In this document: piece by piece, positions 28,554 to 46,246 of the stretch
Layout: each line of letters opens with the position of its first letter
How positions within the stretch are numbered: position 1 is the first letter of the stretch
DNA from: Myxococcota bacterium
Lineage (GTDB): Bacteria; Myxococcota_A; SURF-8
Assembly (NCBI GenBank): GCA_965140415.1
Contig: OZ223209.1
Coordinates: 5,696,001-5,760,000 of the forward strand
DNA length: 64,000 bases
Direction of reading: 5' to 3'
Made by a program: the position numbers and the translations under genes
Notes under the pieces: model-generated
Seen by the model: the letters and a program-made list of their open reading frames with translations, nothing else
Database searches by the model: none
What the model was told of the DNA's origin: nothing

Positions 28554-28952
28554 ATGAGACTATTTGATATCACAGTCGATGCCCTAGAGAAAAATATGGA
28601 CCTGCGCTTGCAGCGCCAGGCCTATATTAATGCCAACATCGCCAATGCCGACACACCCGGTTACCTGCCTGTGGACTTGAAGTTCGAAGACGAACTGATG
28701 AGTTTCCTCGGTCAGAACGAAGACAAGATGGACACGACGAACAACAAGCACATGGGTGGGCGGATCGATGTCAGCGAAGTACAGGGCGAGTTGATCGAAC
28801 AGGCCGGCGAAATGAGCCCGGACGGCAATGCGGTCGATCTGGACCGACAGATGGCCGAACTGGGGAACAACTCGTTCAACTATCGCATGTCGGCCAAGGT
28901 CGTCAACAAGCAGTTAGCCCTGCTCAAGTACGTGATTACACAAACGAGGTAA
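28554..28952 (+). CDS. flgB: Flagellar basal-body rod protein FlgB
   Basis: NIANADTPGY, DGNAVDLD. Confidence 0.96.
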   Translation: MRLFDITVDALEKNMDLRLQRQAYINANIANADTPGYLPVDLKFEDELMSFLGQNEDKMDTTNNKHMGGRIDVSEVQGELIEQAGEMSPDGNAVDLDRQMAELGNNSFNYRMSAKVVNKQLALLKYVITQTR

Positions 28953-28956
28953 GACC

Positions 28957-29388
28957 ATGGACTTCCAAGACGCAATCAGAATCGCATCCAGTGGAATGTC
29001 GGCCCAGCGCTTCCGGCTGAATATGATCTCCTCCAATCTGGCCAACGCCAACACCACGCGTGCCGAAGGCGGCGGTCCGTACCGGCGCAAAGACGCCGTT
29101 TTCCAGACCATGCAGGTCGGCAACAGTTTCGACCAGATCATGTCGGAAGTGGAAGAAGAACACATGCGCGGCGTGCGCGTGCAGGATGTAAAACAGTCCG
29201 ATAAGTTCCGTTCGGTCTTCGATCCCACGCATCCCGATGCCAATAACGAAGGTTACGTGCAGATGCCGGATGTCAACGTGGTCACGGAAATGGTGGACAT
29301 GTTGCAGGCCACGCGAACCTACGACGCCAACGTGCAGGCCGTTAAAGCACTAAAGGCCATGGCCGCCCAGGCCTTGCAGATCGGCTAA
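28957..29388 (+). CDS. flgC: Flagellar basal-body rod protein FlgC
   Basis: SNLANANTTR, GPYRRK, DPTHPDA...GYVQMPDVN. Confidence 0.97.
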   Translation: MDFQDAIRIASSGMSAQRFRLNMISSNLANANTTRAEGGGPYRRKDAVFQTMQVGNSFDQIMSEVEEEHMRGVRVQDVKQSDKFRSVFDPTHPDANNEGYVQMPDVNVVTEMVDMLQATRTYDANVQAVKALKAMAAQALQIG

Positions 29389-29402
29389 CGAGGTAATCGA
29401 TC

Positions 29403-29723
29403 ATGGAACGCATCAGCCTTAGTCCGCAAGCGATGAAGCTTCAGAATCTCTACAAGCAGAACTCGGCCAAAATGACCGAGAACGTTGCAGAGACGAAAAG
29501 CAGCAAATCCTTCGGAGAATTTTTAACCGAGTCCGTACAGGAAGCCAACAGCAGCCAGGTCCAGGCCGATCAATCGATCACCGATTTCTTAGGCGGCAAG
29601 GGCGTGGGTGTACATGAAACGATGCTGGCCGTGGAAAAAGCGGAAATCAGCATGAAACTGTTGTTGCAGGTGCGCAATAAGGCAGTTGAAGCGTATCGCG
29701 AAATCATGAAAATGCAGGTTTAG
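29403..29723 (+). CDS. fliE: Hook-basal body protein FliE
   Basis: HETMLAVEKA...QVRNKAVEAYREIMKMQV. Confidence 0.96.
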   Translation: MERISLSPQAMKLQNLYKQNSAKMTENVAETKSSKSFGEFLTESVQEANSSQVQADQSITDFLGGKGVGVHETMLAVEKAEISMKLLLQVRNKAVEAYREIMKMQV

Positions 29724-29750
29724 GTTTAAACACGAACGGCAAGGTGAATC

Positions 29751-31376: not shown

Positions 31377-31380
31377 TTTC

Positions 31381-32370
31381 ATGGACGATATCTCAACGGT
31401 ACAAAAAGCGATTCTGGTGCTGGTTTCCATGGAAAAGGAACAGGCCGTCAAGGTCGTGCGCCAGCTCAACAATCGCGAGATCAAACGAATCTCCACCGAA
31501 ATCGGCAAGATCAGCAAAACCAGCCCTGAAGAACTGATGGAAGTGCTGGAAGAATTCATGGCGGAAGTGACCGGCTCCAGTAGCGTCATTACGACCGGCG
31601 AGCAATGGATCAAAGACGTCATCGAGCGTGCGGTGGGAACCAACAAAGCCCAGCATCTGCTGCGGGATCTGGGACCACCTACAAAAGTGTTCGATTCGCT
31701 GTTCGATATCGATTTGAATGCGCTTGCGAACTTGATTCGCAAGGAACATCCGCAGACGCAGGCTTTGATCCTGGCCCATCTGGACCCGACCAAAGCGGCG
31801 GGCGTGCTGCCATTGCTGCCTGAACAGGACCAGGTAGACATCATTTTGCGTATTGCGAAAATCACCTCGATTCATCCGGACCTGTTGGCCGAGATCGAGG
31901 ATGCACTGATGGAAGAAATCCAACGTCTGGGTGCGGTAAGTACGGCAGAAGCCGGTGGTGTCGAAATGGTCGTGGATATGTTGAACATCATGGAGAAGAA
32001 GCACGAAAAGACGATCCTGACCGGCATCGAACAGGAAGATCCGAAGCTGGCCGAAGAGATCAAGGGCATGATGTTCGTATTCGAAGATCTTTCGAGCCTC
32101 GACGACCGCTCCCTGCAACTCATCCTGCGCGAAGTGGATCAACAGACTCTGGTTATGGCCCTCAAGGCGGCCAACGAGGATATGGTCGAACGGGTCAAGG
32201 GCAACGTGTCCAAACGCGCGGCACAGATGTTGGACGAAGATCTGGATGCGCTGGGTCCGGTGCGCTTGAGCGAAGTCGAAACGGCACAGGGCGAGATTGT
32301 ACGTGTTGCGCTTAAACTGGAAGAAGAAGGCAAGATCGTAGCCAGCTCCGGCGAGGAAGAGTATGTCTAA
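31381..32370 (+). CDS. fliG: Motor switch protein FliG
   Basis: EHPQ, MFVFEDL, GPVRLSEVE. Confidence 0.97.
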   Translation: MDDISTVQKAILVLVSMEKEQAVKVVRQLNNREIKRISTEIGKISKTSPEELMEVLEEFMAEVTGSSSVITTGEQWIKDVIERAVGTNKAQHLLRDLGPPTKVFDSLFDIDLNALANLIRKEHPQTQALILAHLDPTKAAGVLPLLPEQDQVDIILRIAKITSIHPDLLAEIEDALMEEIQRLGAVSTAEAGGVEMVVDMLNIMEKKHEKTILTGIEQEDPKLAEEIKGMMFVFEDLSSLDDRSLQLILREVDQQTLVMALKAANEDMVERVKGNVSKRAAQMLDEDLDALGPVRLSEVETAQGEIVRVALKLEEEGKIVASSGEEEYV

Positions 32371-33217
32371 GATTCTGAAGAAAGATCTGGCCGATGCGCT
32401 GGGGGTGACGAAAGCGATTTTCGATGAGGTACCGGAATCGGCGGAATCGGAGTTCGTGCTTTCCATGCGGGAAAACAGTGGCCGGATGGCCAACCATGGA
32501 ACGAATAGTCCGGCCTCTTCCGCCCAAGCGCCGGGATCGTCTTCCGGTGCGGCGGCCATGTCTGATTTCCAACCGGATGTGTCTTCGCAGGAACTTGTGG
32601 ATCAGATGATGAATCCGGGTGCTACGAGTGATGGGGCAATTGCCGGAGATAGCGTTCCATCTTCTGCCGGCGCAGGCGAGATTGCAGAATTGGTAGCGCT
32701 GTTGGAACGCGAGCGCCACGAACAGGAAGAAAAGATTCAGCAAGCCTACGAACGCGGAGTCGCCGATGGCGAACGTCACCGCGCCGAATTCGAGGCGCAG
32801 TTGTCCGAATCCTATCATTACGGACTCAAGCGTTTGGAAATGCTTGGGAATTCATTGGAAGTGCTGGCTCGTTCGGAAGCGTTGGAAATCGCGATTCTGG
32901 TCGCCAGACGTATTTTGCAAAAAGAGATCGAAATGAACCCGTTGCAGATCATCGAACAGGTGAAACGGGTCAGTTCGGAAGCGATGGGCAAAAAGGAATT
33001 GACCATCCGCCTCAATCCGCAGGATCTGGCCGCAGTGCGCGCCATCGATCCGGAATTGGGAACGCATTTCCCGGCGGTCGGACAGGTATCGATTCTGGAA
33101 GATCACGACCTGCAACCGGGTGATTGCCTTGTGGATACCGAAGTAGAGCAGATCAATCTGTCATTGGATGAACAACTCGCAGTGTTGAAGAAAGCACTGG
33201 AGGAGGAACTGGCGTGA
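32363..33217 (+). CDS. fliH: Flagellar export protein FliH
   Basis: Lies between fliG and fliI; AYERGVADG, IRLNPQD, GDCLVDTE. Confidence 0.88.
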   Translation: MSKILKKDLADALGVTKAIFDEVPESAESEFVLSMRENSGRMANHGTNSPASSAQAPGSSSGAAAMSDFQPDVSSQELVDQMMNPGATSDGAIAGDSVPSSAGAGEIAELVALLERERHEQEEKIQQAYERGVADGERHRAEFEAQLSESYHYGLKRLEMLGNSLEVLARSEALEIAILVARRILQKEIEMNPLQIIEQVKRVSSEAMGKKELTIRLNPQDLAAVRAIDPELGTHFPAVGQVSILEDHDLQPGDCLVDTEVEQINLSLDEQLAVLKKALEEELA

Positions 33218-34581
33218 CCCTGTTCAGGATCACAGATATCGAGCAACGGCTGGAAGCCACCGATCCCTACGTGACTCACGGCAAGGTGCAGAAAGTAGTG
33301 GGTATGGTGGTGGAGGGCTATGCTCCCGGCGCGAAAGTCGGTTCCTTGTGCCGAATCCATCCCGGATCGGATCTGCCTTCGATCAAAGCGGAAGTTGTCG
33401 GTTTCAAAGCTCATACCGCGCTGATGATGCCGTTGGGCGATATTCGCGGTGTGCGTATGGGATCGACCATCGACGTCATCAAAGCGGAAACCACCCAGCC
33501 GGTGGGTTCGCGCATGCTGGGTCGTGTCATCAACGGCATGGGTGAGCCGATCGACGATAAAGGCCCGTTGCAACTGGATAAAAACATCCCGTTATACGGA
33601 AACCCGCTCAATCCTTTGCAGCGCCGCAGCATCGAGCAACCGCTGGAGTTGGGCATTCGCGCCATCGACGGTTTACTGACCTGCGGCAAGGGTCAGCGCA
33701 TGGCGATTATGGCCGGTTCCGGCGTAGGTAAATCGGTGTTGATGGGCATGATCGCCCAGGCGACACGGGCGGATGTCAAAGTAATCGCTCTTATCGGTGA
33801 GCGTGGTCGCGAAGTGCGTAACTTCATTCAGAATTCGTTGACGGACCAAGGGCTTGCCACGTCTGTGGTGGTGGCTGCCGCCAGCGATCAGCCTCCGCTG
33901 ATTCGTATGCGCGGGGCTTTTGTCGCTACGGCCATCGCCGAATATTTCCGCGACCAGGGCTTGTCGGTACTATTGATGATGGATTCGATTACGCGCTTTG
34001 CCATGGCCCAACGTGAAATCGGTCTGGCGGTCGGTGAACCACCCACCACCAAAGGCTATACCCCCTCGGTATTTACCCTGCTGCCTCGCTTATTGGAGCG
34101 TGCCGGAACCAGTTCCGGGCCAGGCTCGATCACGGGGTTGTACACGGTACTGGTCGAAGGCGATGACATGAACGACCCGATCGCCGATTCGGTACGTTCG
34201 ATTCTGGATGGCCACGTCACGTTAAGTCGTGCGCGTGCGGAACAGAACATCTACCCGGCCATCGACGTGCTTTCCTCGATTTCACGCGTCATGACCGAAA
34301 TCGTGGACGACGATCACCTGCAAACGGCCTATCGCGTTCGTGAATTGATGGCGGCTTACAACAAAGCCGAGGATCTGATCAACATCGGTGCATACGTCAA
34401 GGGAAACAATCCCAAGATCGATGAGGCCATCGCACGCATCGATACGATTACGAATTTTCTAAGGCAGGGGATTCGCGAACGATCCAGTTTCGATGAATCC
34501 TTGCAGGGACTAAATCAGATATTTTCCAACCAGAATGCCGGTCCGGGCGGGAAACCGTCGGGAGCGACTATGGAGGGATAA
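33214..34581 (+). CDS. fliI: Flagellar export ATPase FliI
   Basis: AGSGVGKS, LIGERGREV, DSITRFAMAQREIGL, YPAIDVL. Confidence 0.97.
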   Translation: MTLFRITDIEQRLEATDPYVTHGKVQKVVGMVVEGYAPGAKVGSLCRIHPGSDLPSIKAEVVGFKAHTALMMPLGDIRGVRMGSTIDVIKAETTQPVGSRMLGRVINGMGEPIDDKGPLQLDKNIPLYGNPLNPLQRRSIEQPLELGIRAIDGLLTCGKGQRMAIMAGSGVGKSVLMGMIAQATRADVKVIALIGERGREVRNFIQNSLTDQGLATSVVVAAASDQPPLIRMRGAFVATAIAEYFRDQGLSVLLMMDSITRFAMAQREIGLAVGEPPTTKGYTPSVFTLLPRLLERAGTSSGPGSITGLYTVLVEGDDMNDPIADSVRSILDGHVTLSRARAEQNIYPAIDVLSSISRVMTEIVDDDHLQTAYRVRELMAAYNKAEDLINIGAYVKGNNPKIDEAIARIDTITNFLRQGIRERSSFDESLQGLNQIFSNQNAGPGGKPSGATMEG

Positions 34582-34584
34582 ACG

Positions 34585-35316
34585 GTGACGTCGAATTATT
34601 TTCCCAATTATAAACAGAAGAAACCCTGGTACCGCAAACCGGGCTTCTTCTTCTTTCTAATGATACTGGCCGGTATCATGGGTGCAGCCTATTGGGTATT
34701 CAAGGTTTACCCGATGCCGGTGTTGAAACTGGTTGATACGCCACAGGCGGTGGCGCAGGAAGAAGCGAAAAAGGCAAAGAAGGCGGATCAACAACCGCGC
34801 AGCGCAGAAGTGGATAGCGCCAAAGCCGAAGCCGTTTTGAGCAAACGCCAGAAAATCCAGAAGAGCGACGAACTGAAGTTCAGGGAAGAAAAAATCGCGC
34901 AGATCCAGAAAGATGTCATTCAGTCGTTGTACGAAATCCGCACGATTCAGAAATCGCTGGATGAAACACTGAAGAAACAGAAACGGGAAAATCGCTCCGA
35001 GCAGAATTTACATCTGGCCAAGCTGATCAAGATCGTGGGCAGCATGGCGGGTGAACAAGCCGCTCTAGTGATCACGCAAATGGAAGAGGATCTGGCGGTG
35101 AATATCATGGCGTCATTGTCCGGGGCCAAGTCGAGCAAGATCATGGCCGGATTGGAACCGGAAAAAGCGGCGCGTATCAGTAAACGCATGGTTGCCTTGA
35201 AACCGGATGCGGAACTCAAGAACGTGATGGACAACTGGAAAACCATTTTGGAAGAAGAGGCCGAACGTGAGAAAAATGAACGTTATCCTTCCCAAGAGCC
35301 CCCAAAGTCTCAGTGA
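34585..35316 (+). CDS. MotE/FlbB-like protein (TM, coiled coil, MgtE_N-like domain)
   Basis: LIKIVGSMAGEQAALVITQM...SKIMAGLEPEKAARIS; typical position between fliI and fliK. Confidence 0.8.
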   Translation: MTSNYFPNYKQKKPWYRKPGFFFFLMILAGIMGAAYWVFKVYPMPVLKLVDTPQAVAQEEAKKAKKADQQPRSAEVDSAKAEAVLSKRQKIQKSDELKFREEKIAQIQKDVIQSLYEIRTIQKSLDETLKKQKRENRSEQNLHLAKLIKIVGSMAGEQAALVITQMEEDLAVNIMASLSGAKSSKIMAGLEPEKAARISKRMVALKPDAELKNVMDNWKTILEEEAEREKNERYPSQEPPKSQ

Positions 35317-36940
35317 GTCGCCGGATAGTTCTCTCTCGGCGGCAATCTCGGGTACGGGCGAAGCCTTTCAGCAGGTAATGGGAGCGTTGAATGAAACTCC
35401 CAAAACTGGTGAAGCCGTGGTGTCCGAAGCGAAGGAAGAAAGCGGCATCAAGGTGCAGTTCGTTCGGGCGAACAACTCCGAGCTGAAAGAAAAGATGCAA
35501 CCCGGTAAACAGGCCGCCGAGGGGCGGCATCCCTCACGACCGGATTCGGCCAAGGTGACCGAACCCATAGGCAAGAGCCTGCGAGACGAGAAACTTCAGA
35601 CCATCAACGGCAAACGCTTCAGCGGACGCATGGTCGAAGCCAGCGCCTGGGACAAGGCACAGGCCGCCAAAGCACGTTCAATGGCCGCCAGTCCGGGCGC
35701 ACGCAGTCGCATGGGCGGTCAACAGATTGAAGGTACCGATAAAAACACGGTGAATCGCAAGGATCTGGCCTCTGGCGAAAAGTCGGCAGATGCGATCAAG
35801 TTAGGCACCAAGGGTGAAATCAGCCGCGCCGATGGCAGCCCGGCGGTCAAAGCAGCGGATGGCAGCACGAAGGTGCTTGACGCACAAAACGAGGACAATT
35901 CGCTCAAGCTTTTCGTCAATCAGGATGCCAGCGACGAAGAAATCCAGAAAGCCAAGCAAACGATCTCTGAATCGTTGAAGAAAAAACAAGCCGATACAAA
36001 AAGCAATCCGGAAGCGTTTGCACGTGCAAGCGAATCCCTGCATGAAAAATCCGGAGAAACAATCGCCAGAAACGTCAAACTGACCGTAGAGGATTCCGCC
36101 ACTAAATTGACCGAGGACAAACTACGTCCTTCTGTACAAACAGCCGAAGAATCGGTGAAAGCGTCCGATGCCGATAAAAAGCACGACAGTAAGCACGACG
36201 GCAAACACGACGGCAAGAAAGATGCACACGCCGGCAAGGCGGATGTGGTGCAGCAGCGCGGCGAGCAAGCCAAGGGCGAACAGAACAAATCGGATGCGGC
36301 ACAGAACTTCGCGCAGGCAGCCAAAGCGGCCAAAGACGCTGTTGAAACTCTACCGGGAAAAGGCGTCGCAGACGGAAAAATTGCAACAGCAAAGAAACTC
36401 ACCCCCACCAAAGGTACGGAGAAATCCGTGACCACGGGGTCCAGCACGGCAACGGCACAAATGGATGCCACCTCTGTCGCTCATGCTCTGGGACGCGGCA
36501 ATCGTACCCAGGCGGTCAATCAGCTTTCTTCTCTGATGGAAGCGCGTTTAACCATGATGACCCAACAGAACCGCCCGGAGTTGCATCTGAAACTGACGCC
36601 GCAGCATCTGGGTGATATTCACGTCCGGCTCATCAGCCAGGGCGAGCAGACCACGGTGCGCATACAGGCGGAGCGCGAAGTCGTGGGACGCATGCTGGAA
36701 TCGGGCGTACAACAACTATTGCAACAGTTGAACAAGGCCGGGTTGCAGGTCAACGAAGTCAACGTCGACTTCGCTCAAATGGATTTCGAGCATGGTGGAA
36801 GCAATGAAACCGGAGCCGGTTCCGGTGAAAATCAGGATTTCGCCCAGATGATGGGTGGAGAACAGGTTGAAGAAGGCGCAACGACCAATACGGCGCAGCG
36901 CCGATCTCTTCACGAAGGAGCAATCGACGTCACGGCCTGA
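35276..36940 (+). CDS. fliK: Hook-length control protein FliK
   Basis: Long low-complexity N-terminus; C-terminal LKLTPQHLGDIHV...LNKAGLQV. Confidence 0.9.
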   Translation: MNVILPKSPQSLSESPDSSLSAAISGTGEAFQQVMGALNETPKTGEAVVSEAKEESGIKVQFVRANNSELKEKMQPGKQAAEGRHPSRPDSAKVTEPIGKSLRDEKLQTINGKRFSGRMVEASAWDKAQAAKARSMAASPGARSRMGGQQIEGTDKNTVNRKDLASGEKSADAIKLGTKGEISRADGSPAVKAADGSTKVLDAQNEDNSLKLFVNQDASDEEIQKAKQTISESLKKKQADTKSNPEAFARASESLHEKSGETIARNVKLTVEDSATKLTEDKLRPSVQTAEESVKASDADKKHDSKHDGKHDGKKDAHAGKADVVQQRGEQAKGEQNKSDAAQNFAQAAKAAKDAVETLPGKGVADGKIATAKKLTPTKGTEKSVTTGSSTATAQMDATSVAHALGRGNRTQAVNQLSSLMEARLTMMTQQNRPELHLKLTPQHLGDIHVRLISQGEQTTVRIQAEREVVGRMLESGVQQLLQQLNKAGLQVNEVNVDFAQMDFEHGGSNETGAGSGENQDFAQMMGGEQVEEGATTNTAQRRSLHEGAIDVTA

Positions 36941-37004
36941 TGCGGTCGTGCCGGATGCCGCGTTGATCGGCATCTGAAAATTAGCGGAAAGGAGGTGAAA
37001 GACA

Positions 37005-37676
37005 ATGGGAACAACAATCGCGGATATTCTAAACAGTCAGGCAGGTTCGTATGATACCACAACGACCAGCAGCAACGATGCCATGGGAAAGGAAGCCTTT
37101 TTGCAACTGCTGACCGCACAATTGACCAATCAGGATCCGCTCTCACCGATGGAGAACGAACAGTTCGTGGCGCAGTTGGCGCAATTCTCCAACCTGGAGC
37201 AGATGATCGCGGTCAATGAACGGCTGGAATCGATGGCCATGACACAGCTTTCGCAGAGTAGCGCCTCGGCGGTGAACTTCATCGGCAAGGACGTGCGTGC
37301 AATGGCCGACTGGGTGGATTACGACGGCGTCAACGCCACTGATGTGAACTTCGAACTGCTGGGAACGGCAGCCGAAACGAATCTGACCATCGAGGATGAA
37401 GACGGCAACGTGGTGCGCACCGTACAGTTGGGGCAACGCTCGGATGGTAGCCACAGTTGGGAATGGGACGGCCTGAACAACAATGGCGAGCAGGTGGATG
37501 CCGGAACCTACACCGTCACGCTGACGGCAAAGGACGAAAGCGGCACGAATGTCAATGGATATACCGAATCGCTGGCACGCGTAACCGGAATTTCCTATGA
37601 AAGCGGGTATGCCGAGTTGATGCTCGGTGATCACCGTATCAGCCTGGCCGATGTGGTCGAGGTATTGGAGGATTAA
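37005..37676 (+). CDS. flgD: Hook capping protein FlgD
   Basis: FLQLLTAQLTNQDPLSPM, WEWDG. Confidence 0.97.
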   Translation: MGTTIADILNSQAGSYDTTTTSSNDAMGKEAFLQLLTAQLTNQDPLSPMENEQFVAQLAQFSNLEQMIAVNERLESMAMTQLSQSSASAVNFIGKDVRAMADWVDYDGVNATDVNFELLGTAAETNLTIEDEDGNVVRTVQLGQRSDGSHSWEWDGLNNNGEQVDAGTYTVTLTAKDESGTNVNGYTESLARVTGISYESGYAELMLGDHRISLADVVEVLED

Positions 37677-37678
37677 CG

Positions 37679-38077
37679 ATGACGAACCGGATTGACCCGA
37701 CAATTACGGGAGCCATCCGGCAAATTGCCGACCAGGGAGGGACGCAACCGTCAACCGGAACGACGTCGGGAGGATTGGCTGATTTCCAGTCTTTACTCGA
37801 AGACGCCCAACGGCAAGAGTTGAATTTCTCCAAACACGCGATGGAACGCTTGCAGCGACGGGAAATCCCGCTGAATCAGGATGATTTGAAGCTGCTTTCG
37901 GAAGGCATCAATCGCGCCAGGCAAAAAGGCTCTCGTGAATCACTGCTGCTCATGGATGACACGGCCTTTTTAGTCAATGTAAACGATCGCCGCATCATTA
38001 CGGCGGTTGGCGAAGAAGGCATGAAGAACAAGACGTTCACCAACATCGATAGCGCCATTCTGCTGTCGAGGAAGTAA
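37679..38077 (+). CDS. Flagellar operon protein (TIGR02530/Flagellar_put-like)
   Basis: LNFSKHAMERLQRR, KGSRESLLL, FTNIDSA; lies between flgD and flgE. Confidence 0.9.
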   Translation: MTNRIDPTITGAIRQIADQGGTQPSTGTTSGGLADFQSLLEDAQRQELNFSKHAMERLQRREIPLNQDDLKLLSEGINRARQKGSRESLLLMDDTAFLVNVNDRRIITAVGEEGMKNKTFTNIDSAILLSRK

Positions 38078-38236
38078 GCCGCCTATCAAGGCGGAAAGAG
38101 GACGCTCTTTACGGATATGAAATCGGACTCCGCACTTGAAACCATAAGGATGTGGCCAGTGGAGATCCCTCGCACGGACGCGAAAAGGAGGAACATCGAT
38201 ATGATGAGTAAAACGTAACGATTGACAACATGACGC

Positions 38237-38294
38237 AGGGCTGGCCCTCATTCGAGGAAGCCCTCCACGGTGACCGGTTGCTTGCCGGAACACC
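38237..38294 (+). promoter_or_regulatory. Putative twin-hairpin cis-regulatory RNA in the flgE leader
   Basis: AGGGCT-ggc-CCTC-attc-GAGG-a-AGCCCT and GGTG-a-CCGG-ttgcttg-CCGG-aa-CACC, immediately before the GGAGG ribosome-binding site. Confidence 0.5.
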
Positions 38295-38309
38295 ACGAAG
38301 GAGGATATC

Positions 38310-39572
38310 ATGAGCTTGTACGGATCTTTGTACACAGGTATTTCCGGTCTGAACTCCAACGGTTCGGCTCTTTCCGTTATCTCCGACAACATCGCCAATA
38401 TGAACACCATCGGTTTCAAGCGCTCGCGCGCGGTGTTCCAGGACATCATGACCTACCCGACGCTGGGCATCGGCTCGGAGAATTACATCGGTGTCGGTTC
38501 GACTCTGTCGGGCGTCGAGCAGGAAATGTCACAGGGCTCGCTGCTTAACACCGGCAACGGAATGGATCTGGCCATTCAAGGCGCCGGATTCTTTGTCGTC
38601 GGCGGTCAGCAGGCCGGACAATCGGGCAATTTCTACACCCGCGCCGGTCAGTTCCACGTGGACAACAACGGTTACATGGTCAATACCGCCGGTTTCCGGC
38701 TGCAAGGCTATCTGGCCGACAGCGCCGGCAATATCAGCAGTGCGTTGACCGATTTGCAGTTCACCAACGCGTCCGCTCCGGTTCTGGCCACTTCCGAAGT
38801 GGAAATGACCATGAATCTGAACGCCGGTGAAGATACGCCGATGACTTTCGATCCCACCGATCCGGATGCCACCAGCCATTTCTCCACGGCTACCACCGTT
38901 TACGACAGCCTGGGCGCCGCCCACGATGTCACTCTGTATTTCACCAAAACGGCGGACAATACCTGGAGTTGGAATGCGATGCAGGAAGGTGCTGCGGTCG
39001 CCAGCGCATCGGGCGAATTGACCTTCAACAGCGACGGTCAACTGCTCACCGCCACCACCACCGCCAGTTCCTTCGACTTCCCCGGCGCGACTCCGGGTCA
39101 GGTCGTTGACTTCAATTTCGGTGACCCCATCTCCACCGGCGGCACCGGTCTGGCGGGCACCACCCAGTTCGCCTCTTCGTCTTCCGTTTCCGCCCAGAGC
39201 CAGGACGGCTACGGTGCGGGCGATCTGAACACCATTCTGATCGATGACGAAGGCGTTATCACCGGTACCTTCACCAATGGCGAACGCCGCGTGATGGGTC
39301 AGATTGCACTGGCCAACTTCAAAGGCGCGGGCCTGGACCGCATGGGCAACAACCTGTGGCAGGAAACCACCGCCAGCGGGCAGCCGCTGATCGGCGCGGC
39401 AAGCACCGGTTCGCGCGGTTCGATCAATTCCTCGCTGCTGGAACAGAGCAACGTGGATCTGGCAGCCGAATTCGTAGACATGATCGTCGCCCAGCGCGGC
39501 TATCAGGCCAACGGACGTACCATTACCACCTCGGACCAACTGTTGCAGGAAGTATTGAATCTGAAACGATAA
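38310..39572 (+). CDS. flgE: Flagellar hook protein FlgE
   Basis: NIANMNTIGFK, DLAIQGAGFF, YTRAGQF, LEQSNVDLAAEF. Confidence 0.97.
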   Translation: MSLYGSLYTGISGLNSNGSALSVISDNIANMNTIGFKRSRAVFQDIMTYPTLGIGSENYIGVGSTLSGVEQEMSQGSLLNTGNGMDLAIQGAGFFVVGGQQAGQSGNFYTRAGQFHVDNNGYMVNTAGFRLQGYLADSAGNISSALTDLQFTNASAPVLATSEVEMTMNLNAGEDTPMTFDPTDPDATSHFSTATTVYDSLGAAHDVTLYFTKTADNTWSWNAMQEGAAVASASGELTFNSDGQLLTATTTASSFDFPGATPGQVVDFNFGDPISTGGTGLAGTTQFASSSSVSAQSQDGYGAGDLNTILIDDEGVITGTFTNGERRVMGQIALANFKGAGLDRMGNNLWQETTASGQPLIGAASTGSRGSINSSLLEQSNVDLAAEFVDMIVAQRGYQANGRTITTSDQLLQEVLNLKR

Positions 39573-39598
39573 TCGCCTTCATTAAAGGCTAAACCGTC

Positions 39599-39634
39599 AA
39601 ATAGGCGACGTCCAACCGGGCGTCGCCTATTTTT
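39599..39634 (+). terminator. Rho-independent terminator after flgE
   Basis: AAATAGGCGACGTCC-aacc-GGGCGTCGCCTATTT followed by a T-run. Confidence 0.85.
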
Positions 39635-39770
39635 CTTGTCAATCCTGTGACGCTTTTCCCCCGAACTTTGACGGATTTCACACGATCACCAACCTAAAAT
39701 TTTCGATCACTATCGCAAATAACGCATTGTAATCACTGAGTTTCGCCTACATGTCAAGAATATACCTCTT

Positions 39771-39786
39771 TGGCATGACGTTTGCA
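39771..39786 (+). promoter_or_regulatory. sigma54 promoter of the motA-flhB operon
   Basis: TGGCATGACGTTTGCA; nearly identical to the site at 24905. Confidence 0.8.
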
Positions 39787-39858
39787 TTATTTGCACGCGG
39801 CAGGTTTTGTATGCATTATATTGGCAATTGTCATTGATTCTATAGAAAGAGTCGAACC

Positions 39859-40629
39859 ATGGATCTTGCAACCATAATCGGACTCGTTGGAGCGTTTGGC
39901 GTTATCGTCGTCGGTATCATGGTCGGTTCCTCGATGAGCATCTTCATCGACATTCCGTCCGTTCTGATCGTCGGCTTCGGAACGATCCTGGCGACAACCA
40001 CCAACTTCAGGTTGACGGATGTGATCAATTCGGTCCGCGTCATCAAGAATGCGTTTTTTGCGCCGTCGCTCCCATTGCAGGGCATCGCCAAGACCCTGAT
40101 CGAAATGTCCATCCGTGCACGTAAAGAGGGTTTGCTGGCCTTGGAAGCCTTGATCAGCGACAGCAAAGATCCATTCATCGCCAAGGGAATCCAGCTCGTG
40201 GTCGACGGACATGAAGTGGACGACGTCGACAAGATCATGTCGGCGGAAATCGAAGCCATCACCGAACGTCACCGGGTAGGCGCGGAACTCTTTTTGCAAG
40301 CAGGTACCTTCGCCCCGGCTCTCGGATTGATCGGAACCCTGATCGGTCTGGTGCAGATGTTGCAGAACATGAGCGACCCATCCAAAATCGGTCCGGCCAT
40401 GTCCGTCGCCCTGTTGACGACCTTCTACGGCGCGATTCTGGCCAACGTCGTGTTCAACCCCTTGGCCGGAAAACTGGCGATCCGCGCCAAAGAAGAAGAA
40501 CAGATGAAAGACATGGTGCTTAGCGGCATTCTGGCGATCAGCAACGGAGACAACCCGCGCATCGTCGAACAGAAACTGAATGCTTTCTTGTCTCCGAAAC
40601 TGCAAATCAGCATGTTCGAAGGCGAATAG
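39859..40629 (+). CDS. motA: Stator A subunit (MotA/PomA family)
   Basis: ARKEGLLALE, APALGLIGTLIGL, ALLTTFYG, NPLAGKL. Confidence 0.96.
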   Translation: MDLATIIGLVGAFGVIVVGIMVGSSMSIFIDIPSVLIVGFGTILATTTNFRLTDVINSVRVIKNAFFAPSLPLQGIAKTLIEMSIRARKEGLLALEALISDSKDPFIAKGIQLVVDGHEVDDVDKIMSAEIEAITERHRVGAELFLQAGTFAPALGLIGTLIGLVQMLQNMSDPSKIGPAMSVALLTTFYGAILANVVFNPLAGKLAIRAKEEEQMKDMVLSGILAISNGDNPRIVEQKLNAFLSPKLQISMFEGE

Positions 40630-40670
40630 AATACGAATTAATGGTAATGGCATAAACGAGATAAACACTC

Positions 40671-41393
40671 ATGCCTAAGAAGAAACAACCAGAGAAAGCC
40701 AAGGAAGACAAGTTCGCAGCCTTGTTCTTGTCCTTGTCCATCATTCTGTTGGCTTTCTTTATCCTGCTTAATTCCATTGCCGAGCTGGAAGCCTCGCGCG
40801 TGGATCGTGCCCTGCGCTCGTTGCAGGCGCTTTCGGCAGGATTGGGTGTATTCGGGCAGGGCGTCAGTGTGGATGTAAGCAGCGACCGTCCCCCGGTGGA
40901 CATGAGCAAACCGCAAGTATTTGAAAAAGCTTATGAAATGATGCAGAAGTCGCTGACCAAATGGGGTCGCGACATGAATGCCATCGATGCGTATGAAGAT
41001 GAGCGCCGCTTGGTGATCACCATGCAATCGACGGCTTTGTTCAGCAGCGGAAGCAATGCCCTTCATCCGCGAACCTTCGCTTTCCTGGATGATATCGGCG
41101 AGTTGGTCGAGCGTTTGCAAACGCCCATTACCGTGCAGGGGCATTCCGATTCCACTCCGTCTTCGGGTAAGTTTTCCAACTGGGAACTGGCCGCCTTTCG
41201 TGCCAACGAAGTAGCCCGTTATTTGTTGGAAGGCGTAGGTGTTCCAGATGTACTGGTAGAGGCGGAATCCTTTGGCGATACCAGACCGATGACCACCAAT
41301 GATACCGAAGAAGGTCGACGTAAAAACCGGCGTGTGGATCTGGTGTTCTACAAACGTGATCTGGCACGATTGCAGATCGTGGGAGGCGAGTGA
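40671..41393 (+). CDS. motB: MotB-like stator B subunit 1: no TM Asp, intact OmpA-like peptidoglycan-binding domain
   Basis: TM FAALFLSLSIILLAFFILL; GHSD, NWELAAFRA, NRRVD. Confidence 0.85.
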   Translation: MPKKKQPEKAKEDKFAALFLSLSIILLAFFILLNSIAELEASRVDRALRSLQALSAGLGVFGQGVSVDVSSDRPPVDMSKPQVFEKAYEMMQKSLTKWGRDMNAIDAYEDERRLVITMQSTALFSSGSNALHPRTFAFLDDIGELVERLQTPITVQGHSDSTPSSGKFSNWELAAFRANEVARYLLEGVGVPDVLVEAESFGDTRPMTTNDTEEGRRKNRRVDLVFYKRDLARLQIVGGE

Positions 41394-42154
41394 TGGCTAA
41401 AAGCGAGCCAAAACCAGTCGACCGCAATGCCTGGATGGCAACGTTCTCGGATCTGATCACGCTGATGCTGACCTTTTTCGTGTTGTTGTTGACCATGAGC
41501 ACGATTGACACCAGCCGCCTGCGCAGTTTGTTCCAGTACTTCCCCGGTGCGGGAATGATGATGGAAGGTGGCGCACCTTCTATCGTGGATTCCAAACGCG
41601 CCATGATCGAACCGTTTAAAATTTCCAGCCGCTCGGGTCAGAAACGCTGGTTGGACGAACAGGACGAAGAACCTTACCATGCATTGACGCGCTGGTTGGA
41701 GAGTCGGCAACTTGATAAAAACGTGAAAGTGATCCGACGCGGCGATGCCTACGAAATCCATTTGGATAACCGGGTCGTCTTCGGAGCAGGTTCGGTTGAA
41801 ATCAATCCGGAATTCGTTCCATTTCTGCATGAAGTGGCGCAGACCTTGAAAGAACAGACCGGCGCTCGCTTGCGTGTACAGGTTGTCTCCTCCGATCCCA
41901 ACGATCTGGCCCAACAGAGCGTATATAAGTCACTTTGGACCTTGGCAACCAAGCGGAGTTTTGAATTATCGCATGCACTAATCTCGCGCTTTAAAGCGGA
42001 TCGCAGGCGGTTATCGTTGATCGGATACGGAGAAGCGCGTAAAATTATGGCAGAGGGCCAGTCGGTAGAAACCTTCGACCAGCGTGTCGAGTTCATTTTT
42101 GTCGAAAACGACGATTCCGCCTCGGCGGCGGAGCCAGGCAAGAGAGAGGATTGA
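41393..42154 (+). CDS. motB: MotB-like stator B subunit 2: TM Asp present, degenerate OmpA-like domain
   Basis: WMATFSDLITLMLTFFVLL; C-terminal motifs eroded to VVSSD, LWTLATKRS, DQRVE. An alternative GTG start lies at 41390. Confidence 0.88.
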   Translation: MAKSEPKPVDRNAWMATFSDLITLMLTFFVLLLTMSTIDTSRLRSLFQYFPGAGMMMEGGAPSIVDSKRAMIEPFKISSRSGQKRWLDEQDEEPYHALTRWLESRQLDKNVKVIRRGDAYEIHLDNRVVFGAGSVEINPEFVPFLHEVAQTLKEQTGARLRVQVVSSDPNDLAQQSVYKSLWTLATKRSFELSHALISRFKADRRRLSLIGYGEARKIMAEGQSVETFDQRVEFIFVENDDSASAAEPGKRED

Positions 42155-42157
42155 TCC

Positions 42158-42691
42158 ATGGCCGTTGACGAAAAAGATGTGGAAGAAGAAGGATCCAGCC
42201 CCAAACCTAAAAAGGGAGGAAACTTCCTGATCGTGCTGTTGCTGGTGGTGAATCTGCTGCTGGTCGGTGGAATGGGCGCATACTTCATCCTTTTCGGCGG
42301 AATGGGAAAAGGCGGCTCCAATGCCGGTGAACTGGAAGGTGCTCAGGAAACCGGAGCGGAAGAAGTAAAAGAAGAAGTTTCCGACAAGTTGGGAACCATC
42401 GTTCAACTGGAGCCGTTTCTGGTCAACCTGGACGAGCCGGGAACCAACCGTTATCTAAAAGCGGTCATCCAGCTTGAAGTTGCCGCCAAGGAAACGGAAG
42501 AGGAAGTCAAATTGCGGGCGGTGCCGCTTCGCGATCTGGTGATTACCTACCTCTCCTCGCTCAATTACAGCCAGACCCAAGGTGTCGTCAACAAGGAAGT
42601 CATTCGCACCGCGTTGATCAAACAGATCAGCAATCTGTTGAAAACCGGAAGCGTAAAGAATTTGTACTTCACCGAATTCGTCATTCAGTAA
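42158..42691 (+). CDS. fliL: Basal body-associated protein FliL
   Basis: One TM helix; FLVNL...RYLK, LYFTEFVIQ. Confidence 0.95.
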   Translation: MAVDEKDVEEEGSSPKPKKGGNFLIVLLLVVNLLLVGGMGAYFILFGGMGKGGSNAGELEGAQETGAEEVKEEVSDKLGTIVQLEPFLVNLDEPGTNRYLKAVIQLEVAAKETEEEVKLRAVPLRDLVITYLSSLNYSQTQGVVNKEVIRTALIKQISNLLKTGSVKNLYFTEFVIQ

Positions 42692-42709
42692 CGGCGAACG
42701 GAGTTCATC

Positions 42710-43702
42710 ATGGAGCAAGTGCTTAGTCAGAATGAAGTCAATGCGCTGCTGGAAGCGGTACAGGAAGGAAACGTTCCGACCGAGGGAGACCCGATTCCAC
42801 GCGACGACGAATTCGAATCATACGATCTGGCCAGTCAGGACAAGATTATCCGTGGCCGTATGGCCGGACTGGAAATCATCAACGATCGTTTTAACCGTTA
42901 CCTGCAAATCGCCCTGTCCAGTTTGCTGCGCAAAGTGGCCGACGTGCAACTCGAATTCTCCGGCCTGATGAAGTTCGGTGAATTCATCAACCAGTTGATT
43001 TCGCCGACCACGTTGAATTTATTCAAGATGTCACCCCTGCGCGGCGTGGCGATTCTGGGCTTGGAAACGCGATTCATCTTCAGCATGCTCAACACCTTTT
43101 TCGGTGGCAGTCGTGGAGATGACAAAGACATCGAACTGCTCGACACGCGCGATTTGACCATCATTGAAATGAATATCGTTAAAAAACTCGTGCGCACCAT
43201 GTTGGGCGAGCTGCAAAAAGCCTGGCATCCGGTGCACGAAATTCACCCCAGCTATCTGAGAACCGAAATCAATCCTCAGTTCGTTGGTGTGGTGCCCTCT
43301 TCCGACGTGGTCATCAACACGCAGTATACCGTGGAATTCGATAACGCGGTGGGCATGCTCAATCTGGTAATTCCTTATTCCATGATCGAACCAATCAAGC
43401 AGAAGCTGTCGATTTACAGCCAAAGCGAGGAACAGGAACTGGATATGCACTGGATTCAGCGCCTGAAAGAGGAAATGATGCAGGCGGCGGTGAACATGCG
43501 TGTCGATCTGGGTCATGCGGATATGACGGTACGCGAGCTGAAAAACATGAAGGCCGGCGACGTCATCATGCTGGACAGCAGCGCCAACGATCCGTTGGTG
43601 GTGCGTATCGAAAACATTCCGAAAATGAAGGGTTTGCCCATTGTCCATAAGGGACATGTGGCGATGAAGATTACCAATATGCACCTCGATGGTGAGGATT
43701 AG
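42710..43702 (+). CDS. fliM: Motor switch protein FliM
   Basis: VLSQNEVNALL (CheY-binding), FFGG, IPYSMIEPI. Confidence 0.96.
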   Translation: MEQVLSQNEVNALLEAVQEGNVPTEGDPIPRDDEFESYDLASQDKIIRGRMAGLEIINDRFNRYLQIALSSLLRKVADVQLEFSGLMKFGEFINQLISPTTLNLFKMSPLRGVAILGLETRFIFSMLNTFFGGSRGDDKDIELLDTRDLTIIEMNIVKKLVRTMLGELQKAWHPVHEIHPSYLRTEINPQFVGVVPSSDVVINTQYTVEFDNAVGMLNLVIPYSMIEPIKQKLSIYSQSEEQELDMHWIQRLKEEMMQAAVNMRVDLGHADMTVRELKNMKAGDVIMLDSSANDPLVVRIENIPKMKGLPIVHKGHVAMKITNMHLDGED

Positions 43703-43723
43703 GCGAAAGCGGAACGGGAGGAT

Positions 43724-44134
43724 ATGATGAGCGACGAACTGGATAAAGCCATACAAGAGCTGCAAAATTCCATGGCTTCTGGCGAAAGCGCGGATTCCTC
43801 GTCGATGCAGGAAGACCTGATGGCCGCCGCCGTATCCCAGTCATCGGATATGGAAAAAGGCCACGGCAAGAATTTGCAAATGATTCTGGATATTCCGCTG
43901 GAAGTTTCGGTGGAGTTAGGGCGCAACAAGATGCTGATCAACGACCTGCTGCAACTCGGGCAGGGATCGGTCATCGAGTTGAACAAGCTGGCTGGTGAGC
44001 CGATGGACGTCCTGGTCAACGGGCGTCTGGTGGCACGCGGCGAAGTGGTTGTACTGCACGATAAGTTCGGTGTGCGCCTGACAGACATCATCAGCCCCAG
44101 CGAGCGCATTCAACAGCTCGCGGAGGAAGCGTAA
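43724..44134 (+). CDS. fliN: Motor switch protein FliN
   Basis: [13 protein letters not shown]...GEVVV...FGVR. Confidence 0.96.
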
Positions 44135-44144
44135 GGAGAACGTC

Positions 44145-45467
44145 ATGTCGAAACATCTACTCGCACTCACGGCCTTGATGCTGTTTGCACTGACCCTGAT
44201 CGGTCCGGTTTCCACCGCGACGGCGGCTGGCAAGCAGCGAACCTTGACCGGTATTTCGGTCGAGGCCGACAACGAGACCGCGCGCATTACCTTCGATCTG
44301 GAAAAGAACAATGGCCGTCGTCTGGGAAAAGTCTATTTCTCGGGTAAAACGGTCAAGATTCTGGTCGAAGATACCAAACTGGCCAAGAATCGCGAGATCA
44401 AGATGCCGGGTCATGATGATACCCTGAAGGGCATCACCGTCAAGCAGAGCAAGTCGGATGTTGTCGTACAGTTGAAACTGGAAGACAAAATCACGTCCAT
44501 TCTGGAACATCTGGTTTTCGAGCCTTACGCCAATCACTCGGTATTGACCATTCGCAAACCCGGTTTCTACGCTGCACGTGCCAAAGCGGTAGAGGAACTG
44601 GCAGCAGCCAAGCCAAGCCCCGCCGAAACCAAAGTGGTCCAGGTGCAAGCCGTAGCCCCTGTAAAAGCAAAAGCCGACAATAACAACAAGTTGGTAGACA
44701 TGCTGCCTTTGGTGGAACCGGAAGCGAAACCGGTCGAACCCAAAAAAGCCGTAGCCGCCGAAAAAACGGTCAGCAAACAGGAAACCCTGGCTTCGCTGCG
44801 TAAAGGCATGGAAAAGACTCCCGCCGAGGCTACGGAAGTTGCGGCGGTTCCTGTCGCCGCTTCGTTGGGCACAGCACCCGCTGGAGGCGTTTCCTCAACC
44901 GGAACCTCCGGTACTTCGGGCATGTCCAAGCCTTTCAAAGTCGGCAATGCCGCACCGGATCTGACCGGTTTGTACGTCATGACCGTGGCCGTGCTGCTGA
45001 TCGCTGCCGTCTGGTTCTTTTTCCGACGTGGACGCCTGGTGTCCTTTACCAAAGTCGAAGAACCGATTCAGGTGGTCAAATCCACCAACATCGGTCATCG
45101 TCAACGCTTGTTGGTTGTCGAAACGGAAGGCAAACGCTTATTATTGGCTGCCAGTGACAAGCAGGTCAATTTCCTGTCGGACCTGACGGTCTCCGACAGC
45201 ACCGCGTTACAAAAGCGCGAAGCACCAGCCGAACCCACAAACGTGCATCCTTTCCGTCAACAAAGTGCCGCTCAAAGCGAAGCCGACACCTCCAGCATGT
45301 TCGGTCAGGCTCAGCAGCCTACTCAACCAGCCAGTGGGCGTCCCAGCTACTTCGGCGGCAAAGCACCTCAGATGAATTCCGGTGCTGCACCCAAACCCCG
45401 GTTCGAAGAACAGTCACAACCGATGACCTTCGCCGAAAAACTGCGCGCGATGAAGCGGAGGGCCTAA
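44145..45467 (+). CDS. fliO: Extended FliO with a large periplasmic N-terminal domain
   Basis: Lies between fliN and fliP; signal peptide, TM helix, then IGHRQRLLVVETEGKRLLLA...VNFLSDL. Confidence 0.82.
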   Translation: MSKHLLALTALMLFALTLIGPVSTATAAGKQRTLTGISVEADNETARITFDLEKNNGRRLGKVYFSGKTVKILVEDTKLAKNREIKMPGHDDTLKGITVKQSKSDVVVQLKLEDKITSILEHLVFEPYANHSVLTIRKPGFYAARAKAVEELAAAKPSPAETKVVQVQAVAPVKAKADNNNKLVDMLPLVEPEAKPVEPKKAVAAEKTVSKQETLASLRKGMEKTPAEATEVAAVPVAASLGTAPAGGVSSTGTSGTSGMSKPFKVGNAAPDLTGLYVMTVAVLLIAAVWFFFRRGRLVSFTKVEEPIQVVKSTNIGHRQRLLVVETEGKRLLLAASDKQVNFLSDLTVSDSTALQKREAPAEPTNVHPFRQQSAAQSEADTSSMFGQAQQPTQPASGRPSYFGGKAPQMNSGAAPKPRFEEQSQPMTFAEKLRAMKRRA

Positions 45468-45469
45468 TC

Positions 45470-46246
45470 GTGCAAACGTCATCTCTCACTGCCAAATGGC
45501 CGATATTAATCGCTCTTGCGCTATTGGCGGGCCTGTTTTTCATTATGGCCGATGCCTCCGCCGCGCCGTTGGAACTACCTAAGATTTCAATTGAAATGGG
45601 CGATCAAGGGGAACCCGGTCAGGTAGTGGGAACCATTAAAATCATGGTATTGTTGACGGTCATCATGCTGGCGCCGTCGATCTTGATCACCATGACCTCC
45701 TTTACACGCATCGTCATCGTATTTTTCTTTTTGCGACAGGCCATGAGCACCCAACAGAGCCCCCCCAATACGGTTCTGATCGGGTTGGCCATGTTCTTGA
45801 CCTTCTTCATCATGAAGCCGGTGTTGACAGAAATCAACGACACGGCGCTGCAACCGTATCTGGAAGGAACCGTTACCCAGGAGCAGGCATTGGAGTCGGC
45901 CTCCACGCCGATCAAGGGATTCATGCTTTCGCAAACGCGCGAAGCGGATCTGGCTCTGTTCTTCCGCATTTCCAAATCCCCTAAACCGAATTCGGTGGCG
46001 GACGTTCCCTTTCACATCGCGGTGCCGTCCTTCATTATTTCCGAATTGAAAACCGCGTTTCAGATCGGCTTTCTGATCTACCTGCCGTTTTTGATTCTGG
46101 ATATGGTCATCGCCAGTGTTTTGATGGCCATGGGTATGATGATGTTGCCACCGGTGATTATCTCACTGCCGTTTAAGATCATGTTGTTCGTATTGATCGA
46201 CGGCTGGAACCTGATTGTAGGTTCCCTGGTCAAATCCTTCGGATAA
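45470..46246 (+). CDS. fliP: Export gate protein FliP
   Basis: MTSFTRI, QQSPPN, SELKTAFQIGF, MGMMMLPP, DGW. Confidence 0.97.
   Translation: MQTSSLTAKWPILIALALLAGLFFIMADASAAPLELPKISIEMGDQGEPGQVVGTIKIMVLLTVIMLAPSILITMTSFTRIVIVFFFLRQAMSTQQSPPNTVLIGLAMFLTFFIMKPVLTEINDTALQPYLEGTVTQEQALESASTPIKGFMLSQTREADLALFFRISKSPKPNSVADVPFHIAVPSFIISELKTAFQIGFLIYLPFLILDMVIASVLMAMGMMMLPPVIISLPFKIMLFVLIDGWNLIVGSLVKSFG

Follow-up and report, generated by a model that had tools for sequence, protein, structure and literature searches.

How can a flagellar stator be built when two motB-type genes accompany a single motA, and only one of them encodes the aspartate (Asp) that binds the ion? This question is raised by a stretch of 64,000 nucleotides (nt) from a Myxococcota bacterium (assembly GCA_965140415.1, contig OZ223209.1, positions 5,696,001 to 5,760,000 of the forward strand), which we will call the window, and in which motA is followed by two coupled genes that we name B1 and B2. 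A preliminary description had proposed that these two proteins share out the two functions of MotB, ion conduction and wall anchoring, within one heterodimeric stator. We will first examine what each protein is, then how far the pair extends among relatives, and finally in which way the two proteins could be assembled. Judged from the sequences, the Asp-less partner of MotB is apparently an old, conserved family that is new to the literature. To the proposal that it works in a MotA5-B1-B2 stator unit, with a B1-B2 heterodimer inside the MotA pentamer, we give an even chance. The genes concerned are the following.

39859..40629, plus strand: motA, a PomA/MotP-like stator A subunit of 256 amino acids, from PF01618 and the PomA alignment
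40671..41393, plus strand: B1, a MotB paralog of 240 amino acids, with Ser21 where the channel Asp would stand; its OmpA-like domain is well preserved
41393..42154, plus strand: B2, a MotB of 253 amino acids from the ATG at 41393, with Asp20, a strong plug and a divergent OmpA-like domain
42158..42691, plus strand: fliL, 4 nt after B2, matching PF03748 at 74.5 bits

The stop codon of B1 (TGA, 41391-41393) shares one base with the start codon of B2 (ATG, 41393-41395), which gives TGATG, and a GGGAGG stands at 41381-41386, 6 nt upstream of this ATG. An alternative start of B2, the GTG at 41390, would give 254 amino acids. The overlap of the two genes behind a single motA, as first described, agrees with the open reading frames and the sequence, and this motA proved to be the only flagellar one genome-wide.

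One flagellar A subunit for two B candidates

The MotA of the window matches MotA_ExbB (PF01618) at 100.9 bits and aligns end to end with the solved PomA of Vibrio (8BRD/8BRI; residues 1-245 to 8BRD, expect value (E) 3.7e-59). Its best NCBIfam model is PomA, at 267.8 bits and under the 341-bit cut-off, and no NCBIfam equivalog cut-off is reached; it has both the channel domain and the full-length likeness to solved A subunits by which we assign it to the MotA/PomA group. The best matches of this protein are the sodium-type PomA and MotP, and it carries threonines in G-T-L and L-L-T-T that we take to be part of the PomA sodium site. Sodium is a possible coupling ion.

Seven other PF01618 matches are found in the genome. 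Compared with this MotA, none of them exceeds 35 bits, and because of this we consider these loci to be ExbB/TolQ-like; B1 as the partner of another MotA of the genome was rejected on the same scores. In a whole-genome scan (5.98 Mb), only B1 and B2 match MotB_plug above the cut-off. By these profile matches, the genome has one flagellar A subunit and exactly two B candidates, B1 and B2. With one motA and two MotB-type genes, any working motor must use the Asp of B2, and B1 has no other A partner.

The canonical stators MotA5MotB2 and PomA5PomB2 (6YSF, 8UCS, 8BRD, 8BRI, 6YKM) resemble this system in the full-length alignments of MotA, B1 and B2 and in the flagellar cluster between flgE and fliL. 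Unlike them, the window has two dissimilar B genes for its A gene, B1 has a serine (Ser) at the position that is Asp in all the solved B chains of our alignments, and the OmpA-like domain of B2 is under the Pfam cut-off.

B1, a MotB paralog without the aspartate

HMMER places Ser21 of B1 opposite the Asp in the membrane helix of solved MotB (6YSF and 8UCS), and MAFFT aligns it with Asp20 of B2; both alignments thus bear out the substitution that had been read by comparing the two helices. B1 aligns with solved MotB over its full length (E 4.5e-21). It matches OmpA (PF00691) at 66.0 bits for a cut-off of 27.2, while its match to MotB_plug (PF13677) is just below the cut-off of 24 in the Pfam search (22.7 bits) and above it in the whole-genome scan (25.1 bits). 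The wall-binding motifs G-H-S-D, N-W-E-L-A-A-F-R-A and N-R-R-V-D are present. In the AlphaFold2 model (mean predicted local distance difference test, pLDDT, 82.3), a continuous helix at 14-57 is followed by a disordered linker at 58-74 and by the OmpA-like domain. The protein thus keeps the whole layout of a MotB, from a short, basic N-terminus through a helix that continues into a plug-like one, and then a linker, to the OmpA-like domain. Full-length identity between B1 and B2 is about 22% (BLASTP), and the two helices differ at the Asp and tryptophan positions. B1 has the OmpA-like peptidoglycan-binding domain of a MotB and lacks the membrane Asp: on sequence, it is a MotB paralog by descent that has lost the defining functional Asp.

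B2, the aspartate-bearing paralog

In B2, Asp20 lies within W-M-A-T-F-S-D and is aligned to the Asp of the 6YSF MotB, the full-length alignment to solved MotB reaches E 2e-18, and the plug is found both by profile (MotB_plug, 57.6 bits for a cut-off of 24) and as a helix at 40-48 of the model. It is the C-terminal part that departs from the family. The OmpA (PF00691) match is of 22.2 bits, under the cut-off of 27.2, and the motifs G-H-x-D, N-W and N-R-R-V are altered. The fold is nevertheless predicted with assurance: the AlphaFold2 model has a mean pLDDT of 78.6, with values above 90 in the C-terminal domain, and its top Foldseek match is the periplasmic domain of Helicobacter MotB (3s06_B, E 4.6e-10, template modelling (TM) score 0.73 by target), further matches being other OmpA-like domains, including those of MotS and PomB. 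All 29 B2 sequences share Arg188, the counterpart of the arginine in the conserved helix motif, and D168 is one residue off the canonical G-H-x-D position, where the five closest B2 orthologs keep [ST]-D. The contrast first drawn between full wall-binding motifs in B1 and eroded ones in B2 is reflected in their OmpA scores, and must be tempered by the kept fold and Arg188 of B2. The peptidoglycan binding of B2 would be weakened on sequence criteria, and residual binding may persist.

Conservation of the pair

Relatives were sought in two ways. A whole-protein similarity search covered 41 genomes, own genome included, and returned seven full-length B1 orthologs: that of the own genome, four from the five genomes that share its family, one from a genome of the same order, and one from a different family within the phylum. 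Each of these seven loci has the order B1-B2-fliL, with motA in front except in L017, whose contig begins inside B1. Eight other loci of this search have a single MotB after motA, with the Asp and normal OmpA motifs, and fliL comes next in 4 of these 8. The second scan, over one genome per species, used a peptide pattern taken from the B1 helix and returned 38 loci, of which 33 have a B1-type gene and 5 are ordinary MotB or OmpA genes. An Asp-bearing MotB lies directly downstream of the B1-type gene in 31 of the 33 loci, the other two ending at a contig edge, and 32 of the 33 have motA as the next gene upstream. More generally, fliL follows B2 in most related loci. In one locus, L035 (1-2490), B1-B2-fliL stands without motA upstream and two open reading frames (ORFs) resembling ATPases of ATP-binding cassette (ABC) transporters take its place; this may be a rearrangement or an assembly mis-join.

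The record titles of the pattern scan are those of metagenome-assembled genomes and name no cultured strain. The closest relatives are labelled Myxococcota (60, 54, 41 and 36% identity), and the other labels are Nitrospirae/Nitrospirota, Deltaproteobacteria and Thermodesulfobacteriota, Desulfarculia, Bdellovibrionales, Schekmanbacteria, Sumerlaeota and Adiutricales. Five loci of the pattern scan duplicate loci of the whole-protein search and were counted once. The set of fully read motA-B1-B2 loci amounts to 29, with 2 from the whole-protein search and 27 from the pattern scan.

In these 29 loci, the residue of B1 at the Asp position is Ser in 17, alanine in 11 and glycine in one, and the tryptophan at the start of the helix is missing in nearly all B1. 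The Asp of B2 is kept in 29 of 29, as it is in all ten single-copy MotBs. From the stop of B1 to the ATG of B2, the distance is at most 10 nt in 21 of the 29 loci, with an overlap in 9; the rest are overestimated by a rule that accepts only ATG as start. The B1 reading frame is intact in every locus read. In L013-L019 (without L017, in which B1 is cut at the contig start), which were not selected by motif, the helix is the best-conserved part of B1, with nine invariant residues between positions 19 and 33 in proteins that are 32-58% identical overall. Such conservation suits a helix that would have protein as its neighbor, rather than one serving only as an anchor in lipid.

The wall-binding domain of B2 follows another distribution. 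G-H-x-D is found in B2 in 0 of 14 loci of the window's clade and in 13 of 15 elsewhere, and G-H-x-D or A-H-x-D is found in all ten single-copy MotBs. The domains were also scored against models built only from these ten single-copy MotBs, as follows.

Other 15 loci, median bits: B1 N-terminal 28.5, B1 C-terminal 108.3, B2 N-terminal 60.1, B2 C-terminal 116.0
14-locus group, median bits: B1 N-terminal 28.9, B1 C-terminal 76.3, B2 N-terminal 60.8, B2 C-terminal 43.2
Window, bits: B1 N-terminal 28.7, B1 C-terminal 120.7, B2 N-terminal 67.2, B2 C-terminal 57.2

The reciprocal split that had been expected in homologs is therefore general in one of its halves only: B1 is Asp-less and B2 has the Asp in all 29 loci, and the decay of the B2 motifs is confined to the 14-locus clade. 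Two further observations concern the wall-binding domains. In L050, L053, L059, L056, L058 and L064, the C-terminal domain scores 45-67 bits in B1 and 13-57 bits in B2; by these scores neither paralog looks like a good anchor there, and another scaffold may hold the stator. In L061 (3602-4228, Bdellovibrionales label), the Asp-bearing MotB after the B1-type gene is a short open frame of 209 amino acids, for which BLAST gave no match to any OmpA-like part; it may represent a complete loss of the wall-binding domain.

A profile of the 29 B1 sequences was finally compared with 1.84 billion cluster representatives and matched 6,073 proteins at E <=1e-30, which are not all B1-type, since ordinary MotBs match too. 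Among the best 150 of these 6,073, the position of the Asp reads Ser in 39, alanine in 39, glycine in 3 and threonine in 1, which makes 82 Asp-less representatives. The remainder of these 150 have Asp (40), a natural asparagine (1), a long multi-domain architecture (17) or no helix found (6), and 5 are mis-registered and read S-D or G-D by eye, which is Asp-type. Among the six without a helix, at least one looks Asp-less by eye and one looks Asp-type. The source names of the profile matches are 'OmpA family protein', 'flagellar motor protein MotB' and 'chemotaxis protein MotB', all from metagenomic genomes.

History and selection

The tree (68 rows, quick IQ-TREE search, unrooted, with supports from the Shimodaira-Hasegawa-like approximate likelihood ratio test, SH-aLRT) has long branches for B1_L036, B2_L036 and B2_L047. 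One branch (SH-aLRT 97) separates the 29 B1 sequences from all others. The B2 sequences are intermixed with the single-copy MotBs, and those 14 whose motifs are degraded group in a single clade (SH-aLRT 96). The B1 and B2 subtrees have the same groupings. From this tree, the loss of the Asp in B1 appears ancient and the pattern no local accident, and the decay of the wall-binding domain of B2 appears specific to a lineage with Myxococcota-type labels, in which the window is included. The simplest history would be one old duplication of motB, an early loss of the Asp in the copy adjacent to motA and, much later, the decay of the B2 motifs.

The pairwise ratio of nonsynonymous to synonymous substitution rates (dN/dS) ranges from 0.07 to 0.44 for B1 and from 0.07 to 0.36 for B2. 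The synonymous distance dS is mostly saturated, being above 1.4 in all pairs but L035/L038 (dS 0.30 and 0.38), for which dN/dS is 0.44 in B1 and 0.36 in B2. The ratio between the window and its nearest relative is unreliable (dS 1.8, amino-acid identity 59% and 51%), and closer pairs from other loci were used. Because the ratios are alike, B1 seems no more relaxed than B2.

These results bear directly on the idea that B1 is a decaying duplicate without any role in the motor. The idea has one point in its favor, which is that B1 lacks the residue held essential for MotB function. It is met, however, by an intact frame in all the loci read, by a single old B1 clade over several phyla, by dN/dS values like those of B2 and by the 82 representatives, among the best 150 of the B1 profile, with Ser, alanine, glycine or threonine at the Asp position. 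The conservation data already contradict it, as far as sequences can tell, and we hold it to be very improbable. A failure of the reciprocal pattern in homologs, together with a B1 free of purifying selection, had been named as what would overturn the proposal of a heterodimeric stator: instead, an Asp-less B1 is paired with an Asp-bearing B2 in 29 of 29 loci, B1 forms one clade, and it is constrained like B2.

Known systems with two small subunits

In our literature search, no paper described a MotB paralog that lacks the Asp and is encoded between motA and motB, although supplementary alignments may bear on this point. In the accessible part of a 2025 phylogeny of MotAB (PMC12505986), the word 'aspartate' has 0 occurrences and no Asp-less MotB paralog is described, and none is described in the accessible part of PMC12204202 either.

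A motA-motB1-motB2 operon has been published in Aquifex aeolicus (Takekawa et al. 2015, PMC4525482). According to the portion of that article available to us, the N-terminal and membrane regions of its MotB1 and MotB2 are 97% identical and one residue apart (Gly20/Ser20), and each MotB gave a working chimeric stator with MotA (PMC4525482). In the window, in contrast, the helices of B1 and B2 are unlike along their whole length, and the Asp is missing from B1 in all 29 loci. An assignment of the window to the Aquifex type, in which the two MotBs have almost the same membrane regions, both with the Asp, and periplasmic parts that differ, was rejected, given these 97% identical membrane regions and the roughly 22% full-length identity of B1 and B2.

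The Aquifex operon, which was tested as two alternative A/B pairs in the same available portion (PMC4525482), invites one to think of two alternative units in the window as well: an active MotA5(B2)2 and a non-conducting MotA5(B1)2, which would compete for sites as a placeholder, a brake or a load-dependent anchor. The MotB-like helix and the plug-like segment that B1 keeps would suit such a unit. However, a unit without an ion site would be unable to turn and would only block sites, and yet B1 is kept across phyla with a dN/dS like that of B2. Translational coupling gives no means of varying the ratio of B1 to B2, and two separate units would leave unexplained why the motifs of B2 decay only where B1 exists. 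We regard this explanation as improbable.

The AglR-AglQ-AglS gliding motor of Myxococcus xanthus had been put forward as a precedent. It is like the window in having one channel protein of MotA/TolQ type and two dissimilar small subunits, and the relatives of the window are also labelled Myxococcota. A heterodimeric insertion, AglR5-AglQ-AglS, was predicted by structure modelling in the accessible part of PMC11761067. The accessible part of a review (PMC9389320), in turn, reports that AglQ and AglS both keep the membrane Asp, and states that their hetero- or homodimeric state and their stoichiometry are unknown. The precedent is thus good for the two dissimilar subunits and not for the loss of one Asp. 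Moreover, AglQ and AglS are TolR-like and non-flagellar, whereas B1 and B2 are of MotB type with OmpA-like domains, belong to a flagellar operon and have one Asp only. An assignment of the window to the AglRQS type was rejected in view of its flagellar locus (flgE to fliL-fliM-fliN), its MotB/OmpA matches and its Asp-less B1.

A predicted contact and where it would lie

The periplasmic parts of the two proteins (B1 78-240 with B2 85-253, each with a 29-row alignment) were folded together. The heterodimer has an interaction prediction score from aligned errors (ipSAE) of 0.81 (0.81, 0.79 and 0.83 in three runs), and the best of 3 controls has 0.04; the mark used for this score is reached by 58 of 80 solved complexes and by 2 of 110 mismatched pairs, a calibration that is rough here, as our own alignments were used. 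The runs have at least 76% of their contacts in common, and the pLDDT of the partner is at least 80. The predicted interface brings B1 171-179 and 197-201 against B2 182-190 and 207-212, presumably the helix-plus-edge-strand contact of the MotB and PomB homodimer crystals. According to these models, the divergent domain of B2 can still be placed in the dimer geometry of the family against B1.

A periplasmic contact does not by itself say where the helix of B1 lies, and it fits equally well an ordinary MotA5(B2)2 unit in which B1 stands outside the ring, as an accessory wall anchor or scaffold that binds the periplasmic domain of B2 (or FliL) and peptidoglycan. The model for this is given by peptidoglycan-binding helpers such as MotY of Vibrio and Pseudomonas, extra OmpA-like periplasmic proteins that contribute to holding stators at the motor. 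B1 would take the role that separate periplasmic proteins have in other motors, and we find this role, like the arrangement as a whole, rather unlikely, though worth serious consideration. In its favor, 15 of the 29 loci have a B2 with all the parts of a MotB, the B2 of the window retains the Asp and the strong plug match, fliL directly follows, and two Asp per unit would leave the published alternating mechanism intact. What an anchor outside the ring explains less well is B1 itself, with its whole MotB layout from the basic N-terminus to the OmpA-like domain, and with a helix that is its most conserved part in unselected loci, which is hard to explain for an anchor in lipid only. The order motA-B1-B2 and the 1-nt overlap also suggest a dosage of B1 equal to that of B2. 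To our knowledge, helpers of the MotY type lack both the membrane helix of a MotB and its plug, and are encoded elsewhere than between motA and motB. B1, unlike them, has a MotB-type helix and a plug-like segment, and its gene lies between motA and B2.

Weighing a proposed MotA5-B1-B2 stator

The MotA5-B1-B2 unit is favored because there is a single A subunit for a constant, coupled gene pair, because the B1 helix is strongly conserved in loci that were not selected for it, and because the anchor motifs of B2 are lost only where B1 is already present. The last point would follow from a B1 that anchors the unit to which B2 belongs, and the decay of B2 in a B1-carrying clade is in our eyes the strongest evolutionary hint, among the sequence comparisons, that both proteins may work in one unit. 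In such a unit, B2 would give the only ion-binding Asp (Asp20) and the canonical plug, and B1 would give a helix that is permanently uncharged at the Asp position (Ser21) and, in the lineage of the window, the better peptidoglycan anchor. Ions would be taken up at one site, not two, and only every other 36-degree step of the MotA ring would be powered, or the ring would advance by 72 degrees at a time. We infer the place of the B1 helix beside that of B2 in the MotA ring, the 5:1:1 stoichiometry and these consequences for stepping. In its wider form, the proposal is that of a natural and widespread MotA5-B1-B2 stator with a single ion-binding Asp per unit, in which the neutral chain is mainly a wall anchor and the jobs are split in the Myxococcota-labelled lineage; we put this forward tentatively, at somewhat less than an even chance.

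Several points weigh against it. No result here places the helix of B1 inside the MotA ring. The loci of the pattern scan were chosen by a peptide of the B1 helix, so that the invariance of this helix in the 29-sequence alignment is partly built in. In 15 of the 29 loci, B2 is complete (Asp, plug and intact wall-binding domain), and an ordinary homodimer is possible there. In six loci of the window's own clade (L050, L053, L059, L056, L058 and L064), the motifs of B1 are degraded too, and 'B1 = anchor' thus does not fit as a general rule. Even in the window, B2 may still bind peptidoglycan, since it keeps the fold, Arg188 and a nearby Asp. As for the predicted contact, its score may only echo the solved MotB and PomB homodimers, and the models, run on the mixed pair alone, show no preference for it over homodimers. 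The idea of one chain that conducts and another that anchors can lean on the Asp-less/Asp pair of all 29 loci and on the predicted periplasmic pairing, and it gives way where B2 is intact and where B1 is degraded.

The mechanism itself is also at stake. The published one is an alternating protonation of two Asp, according to the accessible part of a simulation paper (10.64898/2026.04.14.718414). The same part gives at least one protonated, and thus neutral, Asp as a prerequisite for rotation (10.64898/2026.04.14.718414). If a neutral Asp is needed for rotation, then a permanently neutral Ser or alanine on one chain would be mechanically at least not absurd.

The flagellar neighborhood

The genes stand in a long flagellar cluster, all on the plus strand (28554-46246), with fliK, flgD and flgE upstream of motA and with fliM and fliN, in this order, downstream of fliL. 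Apart from motA, B1, B2 and fliL, the genes of this cluster are named from order and size alone. Myxococcota are better known for gliding than for swimming. Two further features precede motA.

39599..39632, plus strand: terminator-like hairpin 3' of flgE, with a 15-pair stem including 8 G-C pairs
39771..39786, plus strand: TGGCAT-N5-TTGCA, a sigma-54-like promoter element read by eye, 72 nt before the ATG of motA

Hairpin sites in the region are at chance level overall (4 found for 3.8 expected), and the one at 39599-39632 is a terminator-like candidate for separating flgE from the motA unit. The hairpin scan of the region found no comparable hairpin between motA, B1, B2 and fliL. The promoter-like element was likened to what we take to be the sigma-54 consensus. 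With this element upstream of motA and the hairpin after flgE, motA-B1-B2-fliL may be a separate sigma-54-dependent unit. Further downstream, between fliN and a fliP-like ORF, an ORF of 440 amino acids (44145-45467) is far longer than the usual FliO; by eye, it has an N-terminal signal-like segment, a long middle part rich in alanine, proline and lysine, a membrane segment and a FliO-like stretch.

Implications for rotary ion motors

Under automatic annotation, B1 and B2 alike receive the name 'MotB' or 'OmpA family protein'. A survey in which the B subunit is defined as the next gene after motA, as described in the accessible part of PMC12505986, would pick the Asp-less paralog in these lineages. 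Beyond annotation, the 5:2 models of rotary ion motors (MotAB, PomAB, ExbBD and TolQR) rest on two equivalent Asp that take up ions in turn. Should B1 stand outside the ring, it would be a stator anchor of a new kind, with MotB itself as its origin. Should B1 and B2 share one unit, the motor would work with half as many ion sites as usual, at odds with the alternating two-Asp model, and a conserved one-Asp unit would offer a ready-made test of rotation from one site, of step size and of the number of ions per turn.

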